From Patescibacteria group bacterium (GTDB lineage Bacteria > Patescibacteriota > Gracilibacteria > BD1-5 > UBA6164), in the NCBI GenBank assembly GCA_034675265.1, contig JAUCDK010000001.1, positions 30,358 through 94,357 on the forward strand: a stretch of DNA of 64,000 nt, in the 5' to 3' direction. Shown piece after piece: positions 9,570 to 26,275 of this stretch. The notes below the pieces were generated by a model, which was not told the origin of the DNA, did not search any database, and saw nothing but the letters and a program-made list of their open reading frames with translations. How positions within the stretch are numbered: the first letter of the stretch is position 1; the number at the start of each line of letters is the position of its first letter. A program made the translations under genes and the position numbers.

Positions 9570-10664
9570 TTATTTTCAAGTAGATTTTTTCTTATAAATT
9601 TTAAAAATTAATATTCAAATAGTAATCAGAAGAACTAGAGCTCATCAAATAAAGAAAAAAACTGAATCTTCTTTTTTTCTTGATGTTTGGGGGAAATTTC
9701 AAGTTTCTATAGTAGATATTGTATTTGTATTTTCAATACTTTCGTCTATTTCACTTTGAGTTAAAATTCATGAGTTATTTTCTATACTGTTTTCTTGAAT
9801 ACTTCAAGAGTTTTCTAGATTTTCTATTCCAGTATTTGATAGTTCTTGTGCTTCTTTCTCATCAATTATAACAGGAGGAGTTATTTTTGATGGAGGTGGA
9901 GTTTCTTTTATTTCTGGAGAGTTCTCTTTTTTAGGTTTTTGTATAGGAGTTTCTTTGGGTTCCTCTATTACATTACTTAAAAAATTCCCAGTACAAAGAG
10001 GAATATCATTACTTAAAAACTCCTCTCCATATTTCAGTATAGAGTAGTTTGAGTTTATATCTAAAATAGCTGAAAAATTGTCTCAAATTTTTGGATAATA
10101 GCTTTCTCAACGATTTTTATATATGGGAAAATTAGTTGATATTCCTAAACATCCAAGTAATGGGTCTTGAACAGTCTCTTTCCCAAAAACTGTATAGAGC
10201 TTCCCTTGAGATTTAATAATCATATTTAAATCATAGTAAGGGCAAGCTTCAAATAAATCTTTTGTAATATCATAAATTTCTCAAGAAATTTGACATTTAT
10301 TTGCATTATCATAAATATCTCTAGTTTCTTCTTCAGGATTATAACCACTTAAGCAGTTAGGAAGTTCAATATTTTCATTGTAAGCTTCTTCTCAAATTTT
10401 TAATATGTCAACTCAACTAAAGGTTCAAATAGCATAAAACTCATCTCAGACTTTTGGAATATTTTCTCCAGATAAATTGTATAATAAAGGAGTATTACAA
10501 ACTGAATTATCTCAAGCTCAATACAAGACATAACCAAAATCTCATCATTTTAATTTAATTCTTAGGTTTAAACAAGTAGTGTCTCTTCATAGAGGAACTT
10601 TTATTGATTCGATAGTTCCTTTTGCTTTACATTTAAAGGAAGTTTCAAATAATTTTTCTGTCAT
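9570..10664 (-). CDS. Tail-anchored membrane protein with Cys-containing repeats and a Pro/Glu/Lys-rich linker
   Basis: 364 aa. MTEKLFETSFKCKAKGTIES..., repeat NKCQISGEIYDIT, linker EEPKETPIQKPKKENSPEIKETPPPSKITPP, C-terminal TM FFFIGGALVLLITIGILIF. Frame fully checked. Confidence 0.6.
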
Positions 10665-10678
10665 TTTTATTTATTAAA

Positions 10679-10834
10679 TCAATTCTTAAATCTTTCAAAA
10701 TCTTCTTTTTCTTGAGAAGTTAAATTTTTATAGGCATTTGTTTCAGAAGAAAGTTTATAATCATCTTGATAATATTCTTCATTTTTATATGCTTCTCGAA
10801 AATCTTTTACGGTTTGACTTTCCTTAATAGACAT
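10679..10834 (-). CDS. Small acidic hypothetical protein (51 aa)
   Basis: MSIKESQTVKDFREAYKNEEYYQDDYKLSSETNAYKNLTSQEKEDFERFKN. ATG chosen over the TTG used by the track. First gene of the 3-gene minus-strand group. Confidence 0.35.
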   Translation of the reverse strand: MSIKESQTVKDFREAYKNEEYYQDDYKLSSETNAYKNLTSQEKEDFERFKN

Positions 10835-10965
10835 AATTATTTCCTCTTCATTTAAATTTGTATTAGAAAACAAAAAATGATTTTGCAAAATCTGAGTAAA
10901 AGTATATATACTTAAAATTAAAATGCAAATATAAAATATATTTTATATTTATATTTTTATGACAA

Positions 10966-10997
10966 AATAAAAAGGTTTGTGAATTTCACAAACTTTT
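10966..10997 (-). terminator. Intrinsic terminator after pyk
   Basis: gtttgtg-aattt-cacaaac hairpin with a T-run on the minus strand. The stem sequence resembles the 9053-9087 terminator. Confidence 0.55.
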
Positions 10998-12416
10998 TTA
11001 TTCAACTTCAATGATTTCAATAATTGGAAATTCTTTTCCATATTTTTGTATATCACTTACAGCTATAACTTTATCTCAAGCCATAAAGTTATTTTCTTTT
11101 TTCAACTTTTCTATCGCTCATTCTACATTATTCATATAATCATCATTCCAAGATTCAAGCATTTTTGGTTTGATTCAGTAAAGAATATTCATAAAATTTA
11201 AACTTTTCGTTGTTTTTGTAAAAGCATATACATCTATATTTGGTCTAAATGCAGCTGCTAAACGAGCGAGAAGTCCAGTTTTTGTAAGAATAATAATTGC
11301 TTTTGCATCAAGTTCTTCAGCAATACTAATAGCATGTTTGATAAGTGATTTTTTCTCAATATCGCGAGTATTAAGCCCATTATTTGAAAACTCACTATGA
11401 ATATTTTGTACTCATTTTTCAGTTTCAATAATGACTTTTGTCATCATCTGAATAGATTCAATTGGATATTTTCCTGTTGTTGTTTCTCCAGAAAGCATTG
11501 TACAGTCAGCACTTGCCATAACACTATTGTATATATCACTTACTTCTGCTCTTGTGGGAAAAGGATTTTCTATCATCGTTTCTAAAAGATGAGTGGCAAT
11601 GATGAAAAATTTTCCATATTGTAAACACAATTTTGAAATTTCTTTTTGATAAAATGGTAATTTTTCAATTGGAACTTCAATTCATAAATCTCATCTTGCT
11701 ACCATTACTCAGTCGGAATTTTTTACAATTTCTTCTAAATTTTCTATTGCTTCTTGATTTTCAATTTTTGAGATAATTTTTATATGACTTGCATTGTGCT
11801 CTGAAAGTAAATCTCTGAGTTCTTGAATATTTTCTTTATTTCTTACAAAACTCATTGCAATAAAATCATAATTATTTTCTATAGCAAAAAGTACATCTTC
11901 CTTATCTTTTGCAGTAATTCCAGGAAGTTTTAATTTTACACCAGGAAGATTTATGTGTCTTTTACTTCCAATAATACAAGTATTCAAAACTTCTCAAATT
12001 AAAAAATCATTATGAATTTCTTTTACTCTTACATTACAAAGCCCAGAATCAATAATAATAGTTTCTCATACTTTTATATCTTCAAGTAAATATTCATAAT
12101 CACAAAAAATATCATCTTCTCATCTTTTTGCATCATCAACTACGATTTTTACGTTATTTCAAGCAATTAGTTCAATCTTTTTTTCTACAATTCCAGTTCT
12201 TATTTCTGGTCATTTTGTATCAAGTAAAAGACTTAACTGAGTTTTTCATTCTTTATTAAGTTCTTTTATAGTATCAGCAATTGGTTTTGCTACATCAAAA
12301 GTTGCATGAGAAAAATTAAATCTCACAATATTTACTCATGAATGATACATTTTTTCAAGTTGTTCTTTACTTTGTGTTACTGGTCAAACAGTAGCAATAA
12401 TTTTTGTTTTTTTCAT
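10998..12416 (-). CDS. pyk: Pyruvate kinase
   Basis: 472 aa. MKKTKIIATVGPVT, NFSHATF, LLDTKGPEIRTG, MVARGDLGIEVP, ATHLLETMIENPFPTRAEVSD. Joins track ORFs 11412-11630 and 11709-11987. Confidence 0.9.
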
Positions 12417-14618: not shown

Positions 14619-16124
14619 ATGCCAATAGAAAACTCTAACTTTGAACAACAACTTTTTAAAACTGCTGACAAACTTCGTAAAAACATTGATGCAGCTGAAT
14701 ACAAAAATGTAGTATTATGACTTATTTTCTTAAAGTATATTTCTGATTCTTTTATGGAATTACATGATAAATTATCTCAAGATAGTTATTCAGACCCAGA
14801 AGATCGCGACGAATATATTGCAGAAAATATTTTTTTTGTGCCTGAAATTGCCAGATGGCAAAACCTTCAAGCAAAAGCAAAACTTCCAACAATTGGTCAA
14901 GAACTTGATGATGCAATGGAGATAATAGAAAAAGAAAATTCAGAATTAAAAAATGTACTTCCAAAAGTATTTGGAAAGCCAAACCTGGATAAAACTTCAC
15001 TTTGAGAACTTATTGATGTAATTTCAAATATTGATTTAAAGCATACACATAAAAACTCAAAAGATTTACTTTGAAGAGTTTATGAATATTTCTTGTGAGA
15101 ATTTGCAAATGCTGAATGAAAAAAATGATGACAATTTTATACCCCAAAAGCAATTGTTAAACTAATGGTTGAAATGATTGAACCTTATAAGTGAAGAGTT
15201 TATGATCCTGCTTGTTGAAGCGGATGAATGTTTGTAATGAGTGAAAAATTTGTTGAAGAACATCAAGGAAATATAAAAGACATTACCATTTATGGTCAAG
15301 AATCAAATCAAACAACTTGGAAACTTTCAAAAATGAATTTGGCTATTAGAAATATTAACTCAAAGTTTGTAGCTTGGAATACAGAAGGGTCTTTTTTAAG
15401 AGATGCTCATCCTGATTTAAAAGCTGATTTTATTTTAGCAAATCCTCCTTTTAATCAATCAGATTGGTGACAAGAGGTTTTACAAGAAGATGCAAGATGG
15501 AAATATGGGATTCCACCATCTGGAAATGCAAATTTTGGTTGGATACAACATATGCTCTATCACACAGCAACAAATGGAATTGTTTCAACAGTTCTTGCAA
15601 ATGGTTCACTTTCTTCAAATACTTCTTGAGAATGAGAAATTAGAAAAAATTTAATAGAAAATGATTTAGTTGAGTGTATCGTGGCACTTCCAAAACAACT
15701 TTTTTATAATACTTGAATTCCTGCATGTATTTGGTTTTTAAGAAGATGAAGAACTCTCAGAAATAAAGAAACTCTTTTTATTGATGCTTCAAATATGTGA
15801 TATATGAAGGACAGAGTTCATAGAGATTTAAGTGAAGATGATATCAAAAAAATCTCTGAAACTTATCATAATTGGAGAAAATGATGAGATTATCAAGACA
15901 TAAAATGATTTTGTAAATCAGCAAATATTGCAGAAATAGAAAAACATTCATTCGTACTTACTCCTGGAAGATATGTTTGAATAGAGGATGTAGTAGATGA
16001 TGGAATACCTTTTGAAGAAAAAATGAAAGTACTCACTGAAACATTAAAAGAGCAATTTGAAAAAGAAAATATTTTAAATGAAGAAATTAAAAGGCAGTTA
16101 GAGAAAATAGGGTTTAAAATATAA
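14619..16124 (+). CDS. hsdM: Type I restriction-modification system, DNA methyltransferase subunit M
   Basis: 501 aa. Hsd[24 protein letters not shown] motif DPACGSGGM, catalytic [11 protein letters not shown]. Confidence 0.9.
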
Positions 16125-16128
16125 AAAT

Positions 16129-16153
16129 CCCCTTAAAACGAAAAGTCAAGGGG
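16129..16153 (+). terminator. GC-rich hairpin directly after hsdM
   Basis: cccctt-13 nt-aagggg with no clear T-run. Unusual GC content for this genome. Confidence 0.35.
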
Positions 16154-16236
16154 CTCTACTCACAAAAGAGCTACATCAAAGTAGTTATATGATAATTAAA
16201 TCAATTAATAAATCAATAATAAATAACTTAAAAAAT

Positions 16237-17034
16237 ATGTTTCAATTTACAAATTCTCAAAATATCTGAATATATATTGATTTTTCAAATATTTTTCATG
16301 CAAAATACACTTTGTGATGGGAATATGATATAGAGAATTTTTTATCTTATCTGAAAGATCAAGACTCTATTAAAGAAGTTTGTTTTTATTGAGCATATGA
16401 TAAAAGAAATATCAAACAATTTACTTGGGTAAAAAAGCTACAATCTACTTTTAATAGTGATAAATTTTATTTTTATTTTAAAAAACTAGAGAAAAAGTGA
16501 GAAAACCATAAATGAAATGTTGACACAGAGATGTGATTTGATATTTCTGAAAATAAGAATAATTGGGAAACTTTGGTTTTATTTTCAGGTGATTGAGATT
16601 TTCTTTATATTATTAAAAAATTAATAGAAGATTTTAAAAAACAAATTGTTGTAGTAAGTACTAAGTGACATATTGCAAAAGAACTTATTGATTTTATAAA
16701 AACTCAGAATATTGATATTTGTAGATTTATTGATATTAAAAAGGATAATGAAATTGCAACTTGAATTAAAACTATAATAAAAAATACCAAAAGATGACTT
16801 TGTATCCCACCAGAGCTTTTAGAAAAAATAGAAAATGCTGAGATTGAAGAATTGGTTGAATTTAAAAATTGGCTTGATTTGGTTTTGGATAATAAAATTA
16901 AAACTATAGATTTACCATCAATTTTAAAATGATTACAAAATAGAAATCATTATGATACATATAAAACTATTTTAGCTTGGAGGCTTGTTGAAAAGCAATT
17001 ATTACATGATTATATTGAGTCTTTAGTATCTTAG
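16237..17034 (+). CDS. NYN-domain (LabA-like, PIN-superfamily) putative ribonuclease
   Basis: 265 aa. GIYIDFSNIF, KGNVDTEMGFDI, LVLFSGDGDFLYIIKKL, IVVVSTKG follow the NYN acidic-residue pattern. TAG stop. Every codon checked. Confidence 0.6.
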
Positions 17035-17048
17035 TTTAGACGCAAAAA

Positions 17049-17068
17049 TACCTCGATCGCTCGAGGTA
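17049..17068 (+). terminator. Perfect 8-bp GC-rich hairpin after the NYN gene
   Basis: tacctcga-tcgc-tcgaggta. Confidence 0.4.
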
Positions 17069-17178
17069 CCTTGCCAAATTAAGTGATTATATTATATAGA
17101 AAGTCATATAAAATGCAAATAAAAAGTATACCAAAAGTTAACAAAAAGTATTAAAAATTACTATTTAATGAATTTAAA

Positions 17179-17745
17179 ATGTGGAAAATTTTCTCAAAAC
17201 TAAACTACTCAAATCCAGCAAATAAAAAAATGTTTGAAAATCAAATCACTTGATTAAAAGAACAAACAAAATTTGTAAATGATTTATTAGTGCAAAATAT
17301 AATTACAAGTAGAAATAATTTACTCGTTTTGTCTTGATGATTAATGGCTTTTATTTGAGTTGTTCATCCAAGTTTAAAACAAGATACAAATATATTTTTA
17401 AAATTGACTATTGTTTGTTTTTTAACTACGATTTTTTTTGCAATTATTGTTGCAACTATATGAGCAGTTTATGATATAAAACTTATAAAATATAAATCTG
17501 ATGTTATTAAAAATTATTTAACTTCTGTTTGAGATTTCTTACAAAAAGTGAAAAAAATAGAATTTGATAAAGAAGAAGTGAAAAAATATGATACAATGAG
17601 AGAAAAATATAAAAATGATATGGAACTTTCAACTTGATATAAAATTTGAGGATTTTTTCTTAATATAAGTACATGAATTTATAGCATTTCTTTAATTATT
17701 TGAATGATAAGTTTAATAATTTTTTATGTAAATTTAATTTTTTAA
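17179..17745 (+). CDS. Multi-pass small membrane protein, unknown function
   Basis: 188 aa. Hydrophobic helices LLVLSGGLMAFIGVV, LTIVCFLTTIFFAIIVATIGAV, GIYSISLIIGMISLIIFYV. Stop 17743-17745 abuts the hsdS ATG at 17747. Confidence 0.6.
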
Positions 17746-17746
17746 T

Positions 17747-18907
17747 ATGACAACAACAAATACTACATTACCTGATTGATGGATTGAAACGACTTTGGGA
17801 GAGGTTTGTGAGTTTATTAGTAGATGAGTAACTCCAAAATATTCCAATGAATGAATATTGGTATATAATCAAAAATGTATAAGAGATTGAAAAATTTTAA
17901 AAAAAGATTCAAGATTTTTAGATTCATCTCAAAAAATTATGGAAGAAAAATTTTTGAAAGATTTAGATATTTTAATATGTTCTACATGAGTTTGAACATT
18001 ATGAAGAGTTTGACAAATAAAAGAAGTTATAATTCCTTCTACAGTTGATTCTCATGTAAGCATTGTTCGTGTAAATAATAAGAATTCTAAGTTTTACATT
18101 TGATATTTGTTGAAATCAAGAGAAAAATATATTGAAAGCTTAGCAGAATGATCAACATGACAAACTGAGTTGCCTAGAGAAAAAATAAAAAATATTTCAC
18201 TTTTCCTTCCACCACTTCCAGAACAACAAGCAATTGCAAAAATTTTATCATCTTTTGATGATAAAATTGAACTTCTTAGAGAACAAAACGAGACTTTAGA
18301 AAAAATGGCTCAAACTATTTTTGAGGAATGGTTTGGAAAATATAGTGTTGATGATGAATTGCCTGAAGGGTGGAGAGTGGGGAAGTTGGGGGAAGTAATT
18401 GAAAACTATGATTCAAAAAGAATACCTATAGCAAGTGATAAAAGAAAAAAATGAATTTATCCATATTATGGAGCTACATGAATTAATGATTTTGTTAATG
18501 GTTATATTTTTGACTGAATTTATACTTTATTATGAGAAGATGGTTCTGTAATAAAAGAAAATTGAAAACCTTTTACACAATATGTTTGGTGAAAAATTTG
18601 GGTAAATAACCATGCTCATGTTTTACAATGAAAAAACTGATTTTCAACAGAATTAATAAAAATCATATTAGATAATACTGATATTTTTCCTTTTGTTAAT
18701 TGAGCAGTTCAATTAAAAATTAATCAAACAAATATGAATTCTATTCCTTTGATTATCCCAACAAAAGAAATTTTGAAGGAATTTGATGACTTAATTCAAC
18801 CTGTTTTTTGAAAAATTAGAGATAATTCAGAAGAAATACAAACTCTTTCTAAAACTCGTGATGAATTGTTGCCGAAGTTGATGAAAGGGGAAGTGAGAGT
18901 AGTTTAG
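17747..18907 (+). CDS. hsdS: Type I restriction-modification system, specificity subunit S
   Basis: 386 aa. Two TRD halves, each followed by a conserved helix: LPPLPEQQAIAKILSSFDDKIELLREQNETLEKMAQTIF and EIQTLSKTRDELLPKLMKGEVRV. Confidence 0.9.
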
Positions 18908-18929
18908 ATTTTAATAAATAGTTTATTCT

Positions 18930-19940
18930 ATGTGAAGATTAGAAAAAGTAATTTTTGATACTAATAGATTATATAATAGTAAATTAACAACTTTTTTTGC
19001 TAAAAATGTTTGTTGATTAGAAAGTTTCCATAAATCATCTGAAATCATTATTCCAACTATAGTGTTAGAAGAGCTTAGGAATAAATATAAAAGAGATTTT
19101 CAAGAAGGAAAAGAGAAGTTTTTTCAAAATATGTTAAGTAATATTTTGTCACATAATGCTGAAACAATTGATATTGATGATAAAATTCAGAAATTATTAG
19201 ATACAGAAACAATAACTTTTTCGCAGATAGAATTAACAAATATGAATGTTTTAAGTGAAATGATAGAATTAGCTTTAAAAAAAGAACCTCCTTTTGAAGC
19301 TTGAAAAGGTACTGATAAATGATTTAAAGATGCATGCTTATATTTTACTATTTTAGAATATTTAAATACTTTATCCGATAAATATATATTTGTTTGTACA
19401 TGTGATTGAAGATTAAAAGAAGCTTTAGAAAAACATAAAAATATAATTGTTGTTGAAGATTTTAAGGAATTTGAATCAAAAAGTACCTGATATTTTAAGG
19501 AAAAATATTTTATAGATAAATTAAATGAAATATTACCTCATACTGTGGATTCTATTTGAGATATACAATACAATATAAATGATAATTGGCTTATTACTAT
19601 AATTACTAATGATATAGATACTTATCGTGTTGAAGTAGATTTCTCTACAAAAGAAATAATAGATTTCGTGAGAAAATGAGATTTTAATGATTTAATAAAT
19701 TGATTAATTTCCTCAGATAATTTTTCTGATACTCATTCAATTATTAAACAATTGATGTGATTTATAAATTATATTACTGATGATGAAATTATATCTTTAT
19801 ATAATGCTCTTTTCACAAATTCTCAAATAAGATGAGCTTTTTGATACTCAGTAAAAGAATTTTATTTGAAATTATATGAGAATAAAACAGATTTATTTGA
19901 TGATGAAATGAAAAATAAAATAGATAAATTATTTGAGTAA
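18930..19940 (+). CDS. PIN-like (DUF4935-like) putative nuclease
   Basis: 336 aa. VIFDTNRLY, IIIPTIVLEELRNKY, GKGTDKGFKDACLYFTILEY, IFVCTCDGRLKEAL give a PIN-type acidic pattern. The C-terminal half is unassigned. Confidence 0.5.
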
Positions 19941-19950
19941 TATTTATACA

Positions 19951-20439
19951 ATGAAAGATTTAATTATTAACAATTGGGATAAAATAATCTTTATTTTACC
20001 ATTTATTTTTTGAATTTATGAGTTTTTCAAAAATAAAAAAGCTGAAATTGAAATAGAAAAATTAAAATCAAAGCTTGAACTTGAAAAAGATAAAAATATG
20101 CTTAATGATAAAAAGTTTAGACAAGCTTATGAAGATTTTATTTGTTTGCTTTTTGATATGTTACATCAAAAGAAGACAAACAAAAAGATTGATGTAGAGT
20201 CATGAATTGTTGAATTTATGAAGAAAACATTATTATTTGCTTGACCAGAAACTTTAAAAACTTTTTGATTGTATAGAAAAGAAGCCGGAAGTTGAAATGA
20301 AAAAGATATAATGATTTATACAGAAAATCTAATTTTTGCTATGAGAAAAGATTTATGAGTAAGTAATGAAAAATTAGAACAATATGATATTTTACAAACA
20401 TTTATAATTTGAGATATTAAAAAAGCTATTGAGAAATAA
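19951..20439 (+). CDS. Single-pass membrane protein with coiled coil, unknown function
   Basis: 162 aa. N-terminal TM IIFILPFIFGIYEFF, then KAEIEIEKLKSKLELEKDK. Starts 10 nt after the PIN-like gene. Confidence 0.55.
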
Positions 20440-20467
20440 TAATATTTTAATCATTAATTTTTAATTT

Positions 20468-21415
20468 ATGTCTTACTTAATAATAGAATCACATTTTTGA
20501 GTTCCAGAAAATGCTATTTATCCTTTAACTCGTAATCATTCTTCTGATGAACTGGTTTCATTACTTTATAGAATTAATGAGATTTTATATCCGAATGAAA
20601 AGATTGAAATACTTATTCTTCCATCAGAACCATGATCTTATAAAGATATATTAAAAATTATTGGTGCAATTTGATGATGACTATTAACAATTACTTGAGT
20701 TGCAATTGCATATTTAACTTACATTGATGCTCATGAATCTCACCAAATTGATATGATTGAAAAATGTGTAAATATGATTACTAAAGAAGCCGATTGAAAA
20801 ATTGAAATTGATTATACTAAATTAAATAAATTGTGTGAGGATTATTGAGTAAAAAAGATTAAAAATAATAGATATAAAATTTTGCAAAATGATAAAACCA
20901 TTTCATATGAAGAAACTATACTTAAAACTGATGAACAAAAAACAATATATAGGAAAAAAATTGATAGAGAAAAATTTTGAGACATGATTTTTCCGATACC
21001 TGAGGAGCAAGAAGTATTTTTAGAAAATATGGAATGAACTATTGAATTAATTGCATTAGTTGTAAAACAAAAAAAAGAATGAAAATGAATTCCTTGGAAA
21101 TGAACTTATTATTGAGATGAAATTGAAGAATTAGGATATAAAGTTTTATATTCATGAGAGGAAGTTAGTTTTTATATGCAAGATAAAGAATTTAAAAATA
21201 AAATACAAAATCATGAAGTTACTTTTATGAGTTGAGATAATATTTCAGTTTTATTTAATTTAAAATGAACTGTAAAAAATGGCTTCTTTTTAAATAAAAA
21301 TATTTATATAAAAGAAGTAAGACAATTTAATGAAAAAGTGATTGAACATACCCAAAAAATAACATCTAAGAAAGTTAGAAGACAATCTGAGTGACAAATT
21401 AGTTTAGAATTTTAA
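20468..21415 (+). CDS. Hypothetical protein with a central TM helix
   Basis: 315 aa. ILKIIGAIGGGLLTITGVAIAYLTYI (GGG is three TGA). No recognisable domain. Confidence 0.55.
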
Positions 21416-21528
21416 TACTGTTCATTTTGCATTAAACTCTAAATTAAACTTGATATTTACCTAAAATCAATACAATAAATTTGACTTTATACCATTTTTG
21501 ATATATTATCTCTTTAATCTTGGAATAA

Positions 21529-21951
21529 ATGAAAAGAAAAATAAAAATAAATGATGATCCTTTACTTGAAAATTCCTTTATCAAAATATTTAAAAATTTT
21601 TATGAATTCGAACAAATGAGAACAATGGATTGCATCTATCATGTAGTTGATAATTTCAACTGACACCCAGAACCACCAAATGCAAAACCTTTATTTGAAA
21701 CTTGAGACGAAGAACTTAATGAGTTTAGAATCTCACTAAATGAAATTTTATTTAGAGTACATTACTTTTTAACTGATGAATATGTAGTTATACTCAATGC
21801 TTACACAAAACCAAATGGTAAAAAAAGTAAAAATGAATATAACAAAGCTTCAAAGAAAAAATTAGATAAAGAAATTAAAATTTTCATACAAGAAGCTTTA
21901 GAGTTAAAAAAAGAGTATTTTAACAATAATGAAAATTATCATGAGCTATAA
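21529..21951 (+). CDS. Gp49/HigB-like (RelE superfamily) toxin
   Basis: 140 aa. LNEFRISLNEILFRVHYFLTDEYVVILNAYTKPNGKKS...KEIKIFIQEALELKKEY. 11-nt overlap with the next gene. Confidence 0.6.
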
Positions 21952-22639
21952 TATAAAAGATTTACAAAAACTTGTACAATCTAAAGAATTTAGTGACTAT
22001 AGAAAAGAAAACAAAAAAAATCACATACTTTGAGAAAAAGTTTATGCTCGTAGAAAAGAACTTTGACTTACTCAAGCAGAACTTTGAGAAAAATCAAAAA
22101 TAGTACAAAACAAAATTTCTCAAATAGAAAGTTGAACATATGGAGAAAATATTTGAGACGATATTTTAGAAAGACTTTCAAATGCCTTAAATATCTCAAT
22201 TGATTATTTAAAAACAACAGATATTGAGAGAAAAACTTTTGAAATGTATAATTATGTTCTTTTAAAACTTTCGAAATCACCAGATCCATGGCAATTTATT
22301 AAAATAGCATATTTTATAGATTTAGAATCTGTAAAAAATTTTTGAAAACTCTTAACAAACTATATTTATGTGAGATATAGTTATGGTCCGTTTGATAAAA
22401 AAATGTATGATTATCAAAAAATATTTTCCATGGAAAATGAAAAATGATTTCAAGATGTAAAAAGTCTCTATTTATCTCGTGATGAAATGAAAATAATAGA
22501 TAGTGTCTTTGAAAAATATCCAGTAGAAAATTGAAGAGAGTTAATGAATTTATCCTATCAAACACCACCATTACAAAAACTTTGAGTCACTTGTGGAGAT
22601 GGAAAACATATGTATGAAGAACTGGATATGTTCGCATAG
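21941..22639 (+). CDS. XRE-HTH fused to a SocA/Panacea-like (DUF4065) antitoxin domain
   Basis: 232 aa. HTH LGEKVYARRKELGLTQAELGEKSKIVQNKISQIESG. C-terminal WQFIKIAYFIDLESVKNFGKLLTNYIYVRYSYGPFDKKMY. Confidence 0.6.
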
Positions 22640-22652
22640 TAATATTTTGTAA

Positions 22653-22684
22653 AAACAATTCTTTTTAAAAGGATTGTTTTTTCT
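22653..22684 (+). terminator. Intrinsic terminator after the toxin-antitoxin pair
   Basis: aaacaattc-tttttaaaa-ggattgttt (1 mismatch) plus a T-run. Confidence 0.5.
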
Positions 22685-22771
22685 TTGAGTTAGAGAATAA
22701 AACCTTGCATTCTTATCAAGAAAAACTATAATTAGATATATATAAATAGTACTAAAATGTAACAAATAATC

Positions 22772-25700
22772 ATGCTCAACGAAAACTCCATCGAACAATC
22801 TCTCATCCAAATCCTAACTTCTCAGTGATATACTTATTATTACTGACCAGAAATTTCTCCATATTCTCAAAATCCCATGAGAGCTGGATTTGATAATGTT
22901 TTACTTGAAACTGAACTGAAAAATTCTCTAAAAAAGATAAACCCATCACTTCCAGACTCAGTTTTAAGTGATGCTTTTTCTCAAATTCAAAACCTTGGAA
23001 CCACTGACATCATGAGCAATAATGAGACATTTCACACTATGCTATCGGATGGAGTAAATGTAGAATATTTCAAAGACTGAGTTTCAAAATGAATAAATGT
23101 TCAAATCCTTGATTTGCAAAACATAGAAAATAATTCTTTTATAGTAGTAAATCAATTTATTATTAAAGAGAATAATGCGGAAAAAAAGCTCGATGTAGTT
23201 ATTTTTGTAAATGGATTACCACTTGTAATTATTGAACTAAAAAATCCAATTGATGAAAATGCAACTCTAGATAATGCTTTTACTCAAATACAAAACTATA
23301 AAAATGCTGTTCCAAGTATATTTTATTATAATGCTATTTGTGTAATATCTGATTGAATAGAAGCGAAAACTGCTTCACTTTCAGCTCCATTTTCCAGATA
23401 TTTAGCCTGGAAATCACCAAATAAGTCAGAGAATGGAAAACTTCCAGAAATCCAACTTTTAGCTGAATATATGCTAGAAAAAGAAACTCTTTTAAAACTT
23501 ATTAGATACAATACCGTATTTGAAACAGAAGAAATAAAAGATGAAAAAACAGGTTTAGTAAATATCGTAAAAATCAAAAAAATTGCAGCATATCATCAAT
23601 ATTATGCTGTTCAAAAAGCTATTGAGGAAACTATCAGAGCCACAAGAGATGCTTGAGACAAAAAAGCTTGAGTTGTTTGGCATACTCAATGAAGCTGAAA
23701 ATCACTTTCTATGGTATTTTATACCTGACAACTTGTAGTTAGCCCAGAAATGGAAAATCCAACAATTGTTATTTTAACTGATAGAAATGATTTAGATGAA
23801 CAACTTTTTGCTACTTTTTGAAATTGTATTTCTCTTTTAAGACAAAAACCAGTTCAAGCAGAGTCAAGAGAACATTTAAAAGAATTATTAAAAGTAACTT
23901 GATGAGGAATAGTTTTTACCACTATTCAAAAATTTTACCCAGAAGATGGAAAAAATGAATTTGAAATGCTCTCAAATAGAAAAAATATTGTAGTAATTGC
24001 TGACGAAGCTCACAGAAGCCAATATGGATTTACTGGAAAAATAGTTGAGGATGATTTTTGAAATGTAGATATAAAATATTGAAATGCAAAATATTTAAGA
24101 GATGCTCTTCCAAATGCCTCTTTTATAGGTTTTACTTGAACACCTATAGAAAAAGAAGACAGAGATACAAAAAAAGTTTTTTGAGAATATATTGATATTT
24201 ATGACATAGCACAAGCCGTAAAAGATGGAGCAACCGTTCCTATAAGTTATGAATCAAGACTTGCAAAAATCAGATTTAATGAAAATGTTACTCATCAAAT
24301 AGATTCAAAAATAGAAAAAATTTCTTGAGCAACTGACGACCAAATAGAAAAAGCAAAAAAGATAAATGCTCAAATAAATGCTGTTGTATGACATCCTGAT
24401 AGACTCAAAGATATTGCAAAAGATATAGTTGAACATTTTGAAGAGAGACAAAAAACATTTGAATGAAAATCTATGATTGTTTGTATGACGAGACAAATAG
24501 CAGTTGATTTGTATGAACAAATTATTTCTCTTCGTCCAAATTGGCACGATAAAAAGCTTGAAAACTGAGTCATAAAAATAGTTATGACGAGTTCAAGTGA
24601 TGATCCAGAAAGTTTTCAACCTCATCATACTACAAAAGATCAAAGAAAAAAACTCGCTCTGAGACTGAAAGACACAAATGATAATTTAAAAATAGTTATT
24701 GTTCAATCAATGTGGTTGACTTGATTTGATGCTCCATGTTTAAACACTATGTACATTGATAAAAAAATGGAGTGAGCCAATCTGATGCAAGCAATTGCAA
24801 GAGTAAACAGAGTGTATAAAGACAAACCAGGATGACTTATAGTTGATTATATTGGTATCGGGCAAGATTTAAGAAATGCTATGGCTGTTTATACAGAAAG
24901 CGGGTGAGAATGAGAATCTGTTTCAGACATAAAAGAAATAATTGCTTGAATGAAAACAAAGTTTGAAATTGTAGAACAAATGTTTTTCTCGTATGATTAC
25001 AAATCTTATTTTTCTTCAAATGATGGAATGCAAAAACTTCAAATACTTTTGTGAGCTCAAAATTTTATTTTATCTGACGAAGAATTAAAAAATAGATTTC
25101 TTGCAGAAGTTTGAGCACTTTCAAAACTTTTTGCTATGAGTGTGCCAAGTGATGAAGCTGAAAAGTTAAGAGATGAAATAGCATTTTTTCAAGCGATAAA
25201 ATCAAGAATTAATAAATTTACTCCTTCGCAATGATTATCAAATACTCAAGTAAATAATGCAGTGAAACAAATTGTTGAAGAAGCTTTGGCAAGTGATGGA
25301 GTCATTGATATATTTGAAGCTGCTGGAATTAAAACACCAAGTTTAAGTATTTTATCAGAAGAATTTTTACTCGAAGTGAAAAATATGAAGCATAAAAATA
25401 TTGCTTTTGAACTGCTTAAAAAACTTTTAAATGAAGAGGTAAAATTAAGAAAATCAAAAAGTTTATCACAATGAAAAAAGTTTTCTGAAATGCTTTCAAA
25501 TACTATTAAAAGGTATCATAATAATCAAATTGATACAGCACAAGTTTTAGAAGAATTATCTGAAATTGCTCGTGAAATGCATTTAGAAGATAAAAAAGCA
25601 GAAGATATTTGATTGACAGTAGAAGAATATGCTTTTTATACAGTTTTGTCTCAAAATGATTCTACCAAATTTTTAGAAGATGAAAAGATGAAAGAATTAA

Positions 25701-25900
25701 TTCATGTAATAGTTGATATTGTCAGAAAAAATGCAACTGTGGATTGGGAAAAAAGAGATGATGTAAGAGCTAAATTAAGATTACTTGTAAAAAAAGTTTT
25801 GATGAGATATTGATATCCTCCTGATATTGCAAAAATTGAAGCAGATAGAGTTTTAGAGCAAAGTGAGCTTTTGGCGGAAGAGTTAACAAAAAAGAAGTAA
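22772..25900 (+). CDS. hsdR: Type I restriction-modification system, endonuclease/helicase subunit R
   Basis: 1042 aa. [21 protein letters not shown] nuclease core, [15 protein letters not shown] (motif I), [12 protein letters not shown] (DEAH). Five track ORFs join in one frame. Confidence 0.9.
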
Positions 25901-26020: not shown

Positions 26021-26245
26021 ATGGAAATCAATCTTATCACAATTATTCCGAGTATTTTCGTAATATATCTCTTGCTAGGTATCGTTCTCACGATAGGTCT
26101 TATCAGAGTTGAACGAAAAAGTTCAGTATATAGGACAAATAAGAAAATAGGTTGTAAAAAACGTATTTTAGTTCTTTGTCTTATTCTGCCATTTTTTGCG
26201 ATTTTAGTCTTTTTAGGCGTAAAATCGTTGAAAGTGTTCTCTTAA
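26021..26245 (+). CDS. Minigene A: 74-aa two-helix membrane protein, TGA-free, with Shine-Dalgarno
   Basis: ggaaggaga SD 8 nt upstream. MEINLITIIPSIFVIYLLLGIVLTIGLIRVERKSSVYRTNKKIGCKKRILVLCLILPFFAILVFLGV. Uses GC-rich codons rare elsewhere (ccg, ctc, acg, gcg). Strong terminator follows. Confidence 0.6.
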   Translation: MEINLITIIPSIFVIYLLLGIVLTIGLIRVERKSSVYRTNKKIGCKKRILVLCLILPFFAILVFLGVKSLKVFS

Positions 26246-26275
26246 AAAGGCTTGCATACGCAAGCCTTTTTTTTA
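26245..26275 (+). terminator. Strong intrinsic terminator of minigene A (overlaps the sufD stop codon)
   Basis: aggcttgc-atac-gcaagcct followed by T7. Confidence 0.75.

Follow-up and report, generated by a model that had tools for sequence, protein, structure and literature searches.

The hsd locus described here occupies nucleotides 14619–25900 of a 64,000-nucleotide window of DNA from a Patescibacteria group bacterium (contig JAUCDK010000001.1). It is probably a chromosomal type I restriction-modification (R-M) system of a bacterium that reads TGA as glycine, with two slots, the hsdM-hsdS and the hsdS-hsdR junction, at which accessory defence genes are exchanged. The seven guest genes found in these slots resolve into six separable modules: a NYN-domain cassette with a 3′ non-coding element, a 188-aa protein with three transmembrane (TM) segments (3TM), a nuclease of the PIN_12 family, an AbiN-like protein, a PDC-S42-like protein, and a Gp49/HTH-Panacea pair. 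Comparison of genomic contexts indicates that PIN_12 and 3TM differ from ordinary cargo, each being found only within type I operons (for PIN_12, at ≥30% identity).

Open reading frames (ORFs) were called with TAA and TAG as the only stops and TGA as glycine (table 25). The region is then filled by ten ORFs, all in the same orientation (+), in the order hsdM-NYN-3TM-hsdS-PIN_12-162 aa-315 aa-Gp49-HTH/Panacea-hsdR, and the gaps between them hold no additional ORF of at least 25 aa. An earlier prediction made from the sequence had described co-oriented hsdM, hsdS, and hsdR separated by guests, which these ORFs and their Pfam domains bear out, but it had counted eight guests where there are seven. 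The window has a G+C content of ~26%, and translation of 12–30 kb with table 11 yields short ORF fragments only. When the 53 TGA codons of hsdM and hsdR were aligned with four standard-code homologues, glycine stood in 187 of 212 aligned cells and tryptophan in none, and one TGA codon sits within the S-adenosylmethionine-binding motif DPACGSGG of HsdM. Since TGA falls at conserved glycine positions of standard-code homologues, the locus uses genetic code 25. All guests are recoded in the same way, as had been predicted, with 2–18 in-frame TGA codons each. A tRNA scan of the window returned zero tRNA genes, hence no tRNA-Gly(UCA) was seen. In public protein collections, these genes have been translated with code 4, in which TGA is tryptophan (P0001, P0034, P0154, and P0155 among others), and the ‘96% identical’ database matches are the same genes with tryptophan at every TGA position. 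Such mistranslation could mislead profile building for recoded lineages.

The three core subunits carry the domains and motifs of type I R-M enzymes. HsdM (14619–16124; 501 aa, 20 in-frame TGA codons) matches N6_Mtase (7e-112) and HsdM_N (1e-23), and its translation contains the DPACGSGG and NPPF motifs. HsdS (17747–18907; 386 aa) matches Methylase_S (5e-33) in two stretches that correspond to two target-recognition domains. HsdR (22772–25900; 1042 aa, 33 TGA codons) matches HSDR_N (4e-47), SWI2_SNF2 (9e-81), T1R_D3-like, and T1RH-like_C (2e-112), and its nearest solved structure is HsdR of the type IC enzyme EcoR124I (1e-34).

The first gene of the hsdS-hsdR slot (18930–19940) encodes a 336-aa protein, forecast as PIN-like, whose residues 7–155 match Pfam PF16289 (PIN_12/DUF4935; 1e-12, 48.9 bits against a gathering cut-off of 32). 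Residues D10, E48, D134, and D159 are invariant among 38 sequences of the family. An AlphaFold2 (AF2) model of a 48% identical homologue (predicted local distance difference test, pLDDT, 90.2) shows an N-terminal PIN domain of the VapC/PAE0151/Utp24 type (Foldseek probability 1.0 for VapC/PAE0151). It is followed by an extra C-terminal alpha/beta domain of ~140 residues, built of four strands and helices, for which the PDB held no match. In PADLOC, only residues 253–331 match PDC-S34 (profile positions 304–378 of 384; E 4e-7) and a full-length match failed; the match is weak in 39 of 60 family members (best 6e-11), and the modelled homologue gave none.

The distribution of this protein sets it apart from its neighbors. 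Detectable members number 246, at ~40% identity over their full length, and four sampled contexts (Algibacter, Olleya, a JGI metagenome, and a Patescibacteria metagenome-assembled genome) all read hsdM-hsdS-PIN_12-hsdR, with McrBC, PDDEXK_4, a 341-aa gene plus Fic, or nothing between PIN_12 and hsdR. GTDB species representatives were then scanned with patterns from the window PIN protein and the matches annotated locally by tblastn. Relatives at ≥30% identity have hsdS directly upstream in 46/46 loci and hsdR downstream wherever the contig allows. These loci come from Bacteroidota, Gammaproteobacteria, Sulfurimonas/Sulfuricurvum, Desulfobacterales/Thermodesulfobacteriota, Thermotogaceae, Acidimicrobium, Nitrospinota, Rubritalea, Patescibacteria, and, among the DPANN archaea, Micrarchaeota and Nanoarchaeia. 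The median distance from hsdS stop to PIN_12 start is 3 nt; it is at most 25 nt in 39 of 45 cases, and the genes overlap in 16. On the other side, hsdR follows within ~30 nt in 23 of 41 loci, and the remaining 18 hold 1–3.8 kb of extra cargo. This spacing implies that the core unit is an operon of four genes, too compact to include an antitoxin, in which PIN_12 is strictly linked and, to judge from the gene junctions, translationally coupled to hsdS. The PIN_12-hsdR junction is an insertion point, which in the window holds four more genes. Searches of plasmid and phage collections with tblastn gave no PIN_12 match.

The hsd genes that host PIN_12 (L015–L060 in our numbering of comparison loci) are conserved across phyla and domains, with mean pairwise identities of 73% for HsdM and 68% for HsdR, Micrarchaeota and Nanoarchaeia included. 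This conservation points to recent and wide horizontal spread of one type I family. PIN_12 evolves faster (mean identity 45%), and its divergence is correlated with that of HsdM (r = 0.67) and HsdR (r = 0.72), the correlation between HsdM and HsdR being 0.94 (Mantel p ≤ 0.0005). Related proteins occupy other places in type I loci. A sister PIN family of 341–360 aa, recognizable by the motif KR(A/P)PFEGK..SDKGFKDAL, lies between hsdM and hsdS in L080, L084, L085, L088, and L089 (Firmicutes and others; ~9980–11030 in each), and in L078 and L087 a relative follows hsdR. PIN_12-like proteins are therefore associated with type I operons in several positions.

The 3TM protein (17179–17745) shows a comparable restriction on a far smaller scale. 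Hydropathy predicts three hydrophobic segments in its 188 residues, in keeping with the multi-pass membrane protein forecast for this position, and its stop codon ends at 17745, 1 nt from the hsdS ATG at 17747, exactly as had been noted. A collection of 5.8 billion proteins yielded 2 homologues, and one of 1.84 billion cluster representatives yielded 9. The members inspected carry tryptophan at the window’s TGA glycine positions, as recoded genes do when they are called with TGA as tryptophan; 3TM is a tiny family confined to recoded lineages. It lies inside a type I operon in 4/4 independent contexts, which comprise two different type I families and gene orders; one context of the other family reads hsdR(EcoEI_R_C type)-342 aa-3TM-411 aa-hsdS-hsdM. 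PADLOC contains no model or system that matches it. In L095 (hsdM-3TM-hsdS) and L104, 3TM directly follows hsdM, with gaps of 11 and 1 nt, respectively, so that NYN is a later insertion of ~1.05 kb between hsdM and 3TM in the window lineage. A 161-aa protein with three TM segments, located between hsdM and hsdS in another Patescibacteria locus (L014), was considered as a homologue and rejected, the likeness being topological only: pairwise BLAST gave 2e-5 without composition correction, and a hidden Markov model of the 3TM family, run against 17,670 ORFs, failed to find it at E ≤ 1.

Evidence for exchange of cargo comes from a sister strain (L001/L003) with the same flanking genes; a further locus, L002, is 100% identical to the window. 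The sister strain matches the window at 98% DNA identity as far as nt 17806 and once more beyond nt 22776. Between these points, one unrelated 659-aa gene (L001 12698–14677) replaces all five guests of the hsdS-hsdR slot. Its product has no PADLOC match and gives only a sub-threshold GHKL ATPase signal at the N-terminus. The recognition domains of hsdS are completely different (window 17806–18833 versus L001 11570–12607), the regions that align being a central one (18201–18388) and a C-terminal one (18834–18915), at 94–95%. The alignment indicates that R-M specificity was switched by recombination along with the cargo, between conserved hsdM and hsdR flanks.

Related recoded genomes carry further combinations in the same slots. 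L098 reads hsdM-266 aa-hsdS-440 aa-S42-like-Panacea (198 aa)-146 aa-hsdR, with a 78% homologue of the window’s 315-aa protein as its S42-like gene; L101 reads hsdM-NYN-hsdS-256 aa-96 aa-RhuM-hsdR, and L104 reads hsdM-3TM-94 aa-166 aa-179 aa-hsdS-391 aa-hsdR. The Panacea (~200 aa) and 146-aa pair that lies in the hsdS-hsdR slot of L098 (9067–10115) is found outside any hsd operon in L004 (13169–14222), at 66% and 84% identity, respectively. In L004, this pair lies two genes 3′ of a gene with a RelA_SpoT domain. It is because strains and related genomes carry different module combinations in the same slots that both junctions are regarded as exchange slots and the modules as portable.

For PIN_12, a mechanism resembling that of PrrC may be envisaged. 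PIN_12 would be synthesized alongside HsdS as a latent VapC-type ribonuclease and kept silent, either by the HsdM/HsdS complex or by the C-terminal domain of PIN_12 itself. A phage that disabled the restriction complex would release it, RNA would be cut, and the infection would be aborted, as with PrrC. The 3TM protein could likewise rely on the methylase core, serving as a membrane effector or anchor, and the NYN, AbiN-like, PDC-S42-like, and toxin-antitoxin (TA) modules probably act alone as abortive-infection or addiction elements for which embedding brings co-transfer. This specific guardian role for PIN_12 is offered tentatively. Just as tentative is the wider proposal that PIN_12 is a second, structurally unrelated counterpart of PrrC with a far wider distribution, physically bound to the HsdM2S1 core of a single horizontally mobile type I R-M family and freed by phage anti-restriction proteins, with 3TM as a membrane-acting analogue on the same core.

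Several points weigh against these readings. PIN_12 is dispensable for R-M, as the sister strain lacks it yet has near-identical hsdM and hsdR. Full-length PIN_12 relatives at ~25% identity in Collinsella and its kin (L061–L076) have no hsdM, hsdS, or hsdR within 10 kb, so that linkage to hsd genes characterizes a subfamily within PF16289 and does not extend to the whole family. Genes that had long shared an operon would also show co-divergence and tight spacing even if their products never interacted physically; any physical link of PIN_12 or 3TM to the Hsd subunits is putative. The structural models are of homologues (48% for PIN_12, 51% for NYN) rather than of the proteins encoded in the window. 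The AbiN-like assignment, with an E-value of 6e-6 and no other support, is weak, and an NYN protein embedded elsewhere conferred no defence against phage in tests (Payne et al., 2024).

It is also conceivable, although unlikely, that no guest is functionally tied to restriction, PIN_12 and 3TM included. The junctions would then be recombination hot spots at which embedding confers co-transfer and co-expression. The high variability of cargo between strains and the dispensability of PIN_12 are in line with this, as are the selfish benefit proposed for embedding (Payne et al., 2024) and the fact that most known systems are embedded only occasionally. However, a hitch-hiker would be expected elsewhere too, whereas PIN_12 at ≥30% identity occupies the same slot of hsd operons in every one of the 46 loci and nearly always abuts hsdS. 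A free VapC-type toxin without an antitoxin would moreover be hard to keep, and the presence of 3TM in type I operons of two families in all four contexts is likewise difficult to reconcile with chance carriage.

The NYN gene behaves as a portable single-gene cassette. Its product matches PF01936 (3e-17; 63.9 bits against a cut-off of 24.2), as anticipated for the hsdM-hsdS slot. Because homologues are 261–276 aa long, translation of the ORF, which opens at 16189, probably starts at M17 (nt 16237), giving a protein of 265 aa (16237–17034). Residues D26, D107, D113, D130, and D132 are invariant in the family. The AF2 model of a 51% homologue (pLDDT 88.6) matches 2qip (LabA-like; 9e-7) and MARF1 NYN domains in Foldseek, and its C-terminal helical domain found no structural match. 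PADLOC assigns the protein to a generic NYN model and to no system. Both guest nucleases therefore keep their catalytic residues in what are predicted to be intact active sites, and nuclease-type guests do stand in both inter-subunit slots, as had been proposed; a search for nuclease folds and acidic residues, suggested at that time as a check, found both. The companion check, recurrence of homologues in hsd operons, gave a divided answer: it held for PIN_12 and 3TM but not for NYN, which is inside hsd operons in only 2/5 independent contexts. NYN homologues with 76%, 51%, and 43% identity are located elsewhere, next to RelA_SpoT/Panacea genes, PemK/HTH-Panacea genes, or unrelated genes, and none of these has a 3TM partner. 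A 200-aa gene after NYN in L007 was considered for that part and ruled out, having no similarity.

A conserved non-coding element directly follows the NYN stop codon in four unrelated contexts (window 17041–17125 (+), L004 10802–10895, L007 10838–10925, and L101 8812–8900). Its parts are, in order, a hairpin, T(T/C)GCCAAATTAAGT, a promoter-like TATA(T/A)A 16 nt on, and AAAATGCAA. The 13-mer of the element occurs only directly 3′ of NYN, in 11/11 NYN loci at ≥51% identity; neither the remainder of the window nor any of the other 90 loci contains it. A known RNA was rejected as its identity since Rfam gave no match, and RNAalifold covariation among the four sequences is weak. The element could combine a terminator with an outward promoter and so let the cassette sit in operons; alternatively, it could be an RNA that partners the nuclease or a site of recombination.

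These distributions bear on the architecture originally envisaged, in which the whole set forms one integrated prr-like system, with NYN and PIN_12 ribonucleases each paired with small membrane proteins, silenced by R-M and firing together when restriction is blocked. Ten co-oriented genes with short gaps, the single nucleotide between 3TM and hsdS, the catalytic residues kept in both nucleases, and the position of PIN_12 in the slot between hsdS and hsdR, which is also that of prrC, would all suit such a system. Its partners are not co-conserved, however: the other six window guests are present in 0/80 PIN_12-type loci, NYN homologues lie outside hsd operons and without 3TM, and 3TM occurs without NYN and goes with hsdM/hsdS. 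PIN_12 is never found with AbiN-like or PDC-S42-like genes elsewhere, so the proposed pairing of nucleases with small membrane proteins does not hold. A single unrelated gene takes the place of five in the sister strain, related genomes mix the modules differently, and hairpins separate the units. Comparative data thus largely refute the integrated arrangement, which we regard as very improbable; the seven guests are not one system. Less probable still is that PIN_12 is a regulatory or maturation factor of R-M, for example a ribonuclease that trims the polycistronic hsd transcript and in this way tunes hsdR expression, with restriction delayed on entry into a new host (type IC-like systems are not known to have the ClpXP-dependent alleviation of restriction described for type IA): its place exactly at the hsdS-hsdR boundary, its apparent coupling to hsdS, and its co-divergence with the operon would fit, but the gene is dispensable in the sister strain, and the foreign cargo between PIN_12 and hsdR in 18 of 41 loci suggests no strict requirement in cis.

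The remaining guests of the hsdS-hsdR slot appear to be ordinary defence cargo. The 162-aa protein (19951–20439) has a weak PADLOC match to AbiN (E 6e-6, 24 bits, profile positions 10–140 of 165). The 315-aa protein (20468–21415) matches PDC-S42 over nearly its full length (5.5e-19; residues 20–313 against profile positions 27–316 of 320) and, judged apart from PADLOC’s own score threshold, is likely a member or close relative of that family. It has one metagenome relative only, viral contigs contain no relatives of it or of the AbiN-like protein, and the literature search found no paper that mentions PDC-S42. Both proteins had been described as small TM-helix proteins; hydropathy supports one TM helix in the 315-aa protein, but the 162-aa protein has only a borderline N-terminal hydrophobic segment (hydropathy 2.23 over residues 12–26). 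The next two genes have the domains forecast for them: the Gp49/HigB-type toxin candidate (21529–21951; 140 aa) matches PF05973 (3e-7; 30.7 bits against a cut-off of 23.9), has no PADLOC match, and overlaps by 23 nt the gene of the antitoxin candidate (21929–22639; 236 aa), which matches HTH_3 (5e-10, 39.6 bits) and SocA_Panacea (9e-11, 43.1 bits). Adjacent, overlapping, and with the expected domains, the two genes are a predicted type II TA pair. Profile searches of the guests against NCBIfam and PHROGs add little.

It is not established that the ten genes form one operon, as had been assumed, since hairpins follow hsdM, NYN, and the TA pair and a scan for consensus promoters and terminators gave counts no higher than in shuffled sequence. 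The last of these hairpins, an AT-rich one followed by a T-run (22651–22690 (+); RNAfold −13.7 kcal/mol), is a possible terminator between the TA pair and hsdR; it was not called by the scan, which demands three G-C pairs. Just 3′ of hsdR lies a 74-aa ORF with two strongly hydrophobic segments (26021–26245 (+)), which could be an eighth small gene of the cluster. The sister strain shows 99% conservation of this DNA and has no gene called for the ORF, and the sole strong intrinsic terminator of the region (26244–26271) comes directly after it.

The original prediction held the architecture to be unrecognized, but embedding of this kind has been published. A survey of type I R-M, BREX, and DISARM operons counted 17,432 non-redundant genes embedded in them, listed 145 PDC candidates, and offered selfish benefit through co-transfer as an explanation (Payne et al., 2024). 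PADLOC holds PDC-S42, AbiN, and PDC-S34, a PIN relative. The multi-guest layout is thus a further example of a documented rule, that defence genes nest in R-M operons, and is ordinary when taken alone. The guests share this nesting with the candidates PDC-S42, PDC-S34, and HEC-09: the 315-aa protein matches the first, the C-terminus of PIN_12 matches the second, and HEC-09 is an embedded NYN protein. They differ in that the PDC families are predictions, the match of PIN_12 to PDC-S34 is weak and partial, and HEC-09 gave no defence against the phages tested. The locus nevertheless shows recoded small-genome bacteria shuffling defence cargo by cassette exchange between conserved hsd flanks, and it exposes two uncatalogued items, the R-M-restricted 3TM protein and the NYN cassette with its conserved non-coding tail.

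Other known systems resemble individual modules. In the Gp49/HTH-Panacea pair, the toxin gene lies upstream of and overlaps the antitoxin gene just as in HigBA/Panacea TA systems, and no difference is apparent; the module is an ordinary one. PIN_12 shares the catalytic fold and acidic residues of VapC, but unlike VapBC it has no VapB-type antitoxin gene, has hsdS and hsdR as its immediate neighbors in 23 of 41 operons, and carries an additional C-terminal domain. It belongs to the same Pfam family as the DUF4935 proteins described by Matelska et al. (2017) and has the same plan, with the PIN domain at the N-terminus and, at the C-terminus, an alpha/beta region for which no homologue is known. 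Those genes were described as usually mono-cistronic, whereas the PIN_12 genes studied here are embedded in 46/46 loci; only several couplings of PIN nucleases with type I R-M were mentioned in that work (Matelska et al., 2017). The proposed logic, to sense anti-restriction and abort infection, is that of PARIS, which differs as a stand-alone pair of ABC ATPase and TOPRIM proteins, PIN_12 being a PIN protein embedded in R-M. A 2025 review names only PrrC and PARIS as guardians of R-M. A literature search, which was incomplete and whose silence is absence of evidence only, found no paper describing the linkage of hsdS and PIN_12.

PrrC is the closest comparison. It is kept latent by the R-M enzyme encoded by prrA, prrB, and prrD and is activated by the Stp protein of T4, and Payne et al. 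(2024) report that nearly all of its embedding is in type I R-M. The analogy drawn by the original prediction between PrrC and the guest nucleases is strongly backed for PIN_12 by its distribution and its want of an antitoxin, but not for NYN, which is not restricted to R-M; near-exclusive embedding in type I operons characterizes PIN_12 (46/46) and 3TM (4/4). Like PrrC, PIN_12 would be the product of a latent ribonuclease gene nested in a type I operon, in this case between hsdS and hsdR, and the window HsdR is nearest to that of EcoR124I, a type IC enzyme as is EcoprrI. PrrC itself combines an ABC-type NTPase with a distinct C-terminal ribonuclease module, and the VapC-type PIN and alpha/beta domains of PIN_12 have no sequence or fold relation to it. 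Pfam and PADLOC find no ATPase domain in any guest and PADLOC no match to its PrrC or RloC models, so that no guest is a PrrC homologue. A DUF4935 family of unknown function thus behaves as the near-obligate fourth gene of one type I R-M family, for which PrrC is the sole described precedent found. If PIN_12 guards restriction, the strategy of retaliating when restriction is blocked would be far more general than one E. coli example, and the cultured standard-code hosts Algibacter, Olleya, Flavobacterium, and Maribacter, which carry a minimal or near-minimal operon, make the parallel with PrrC directly testable.

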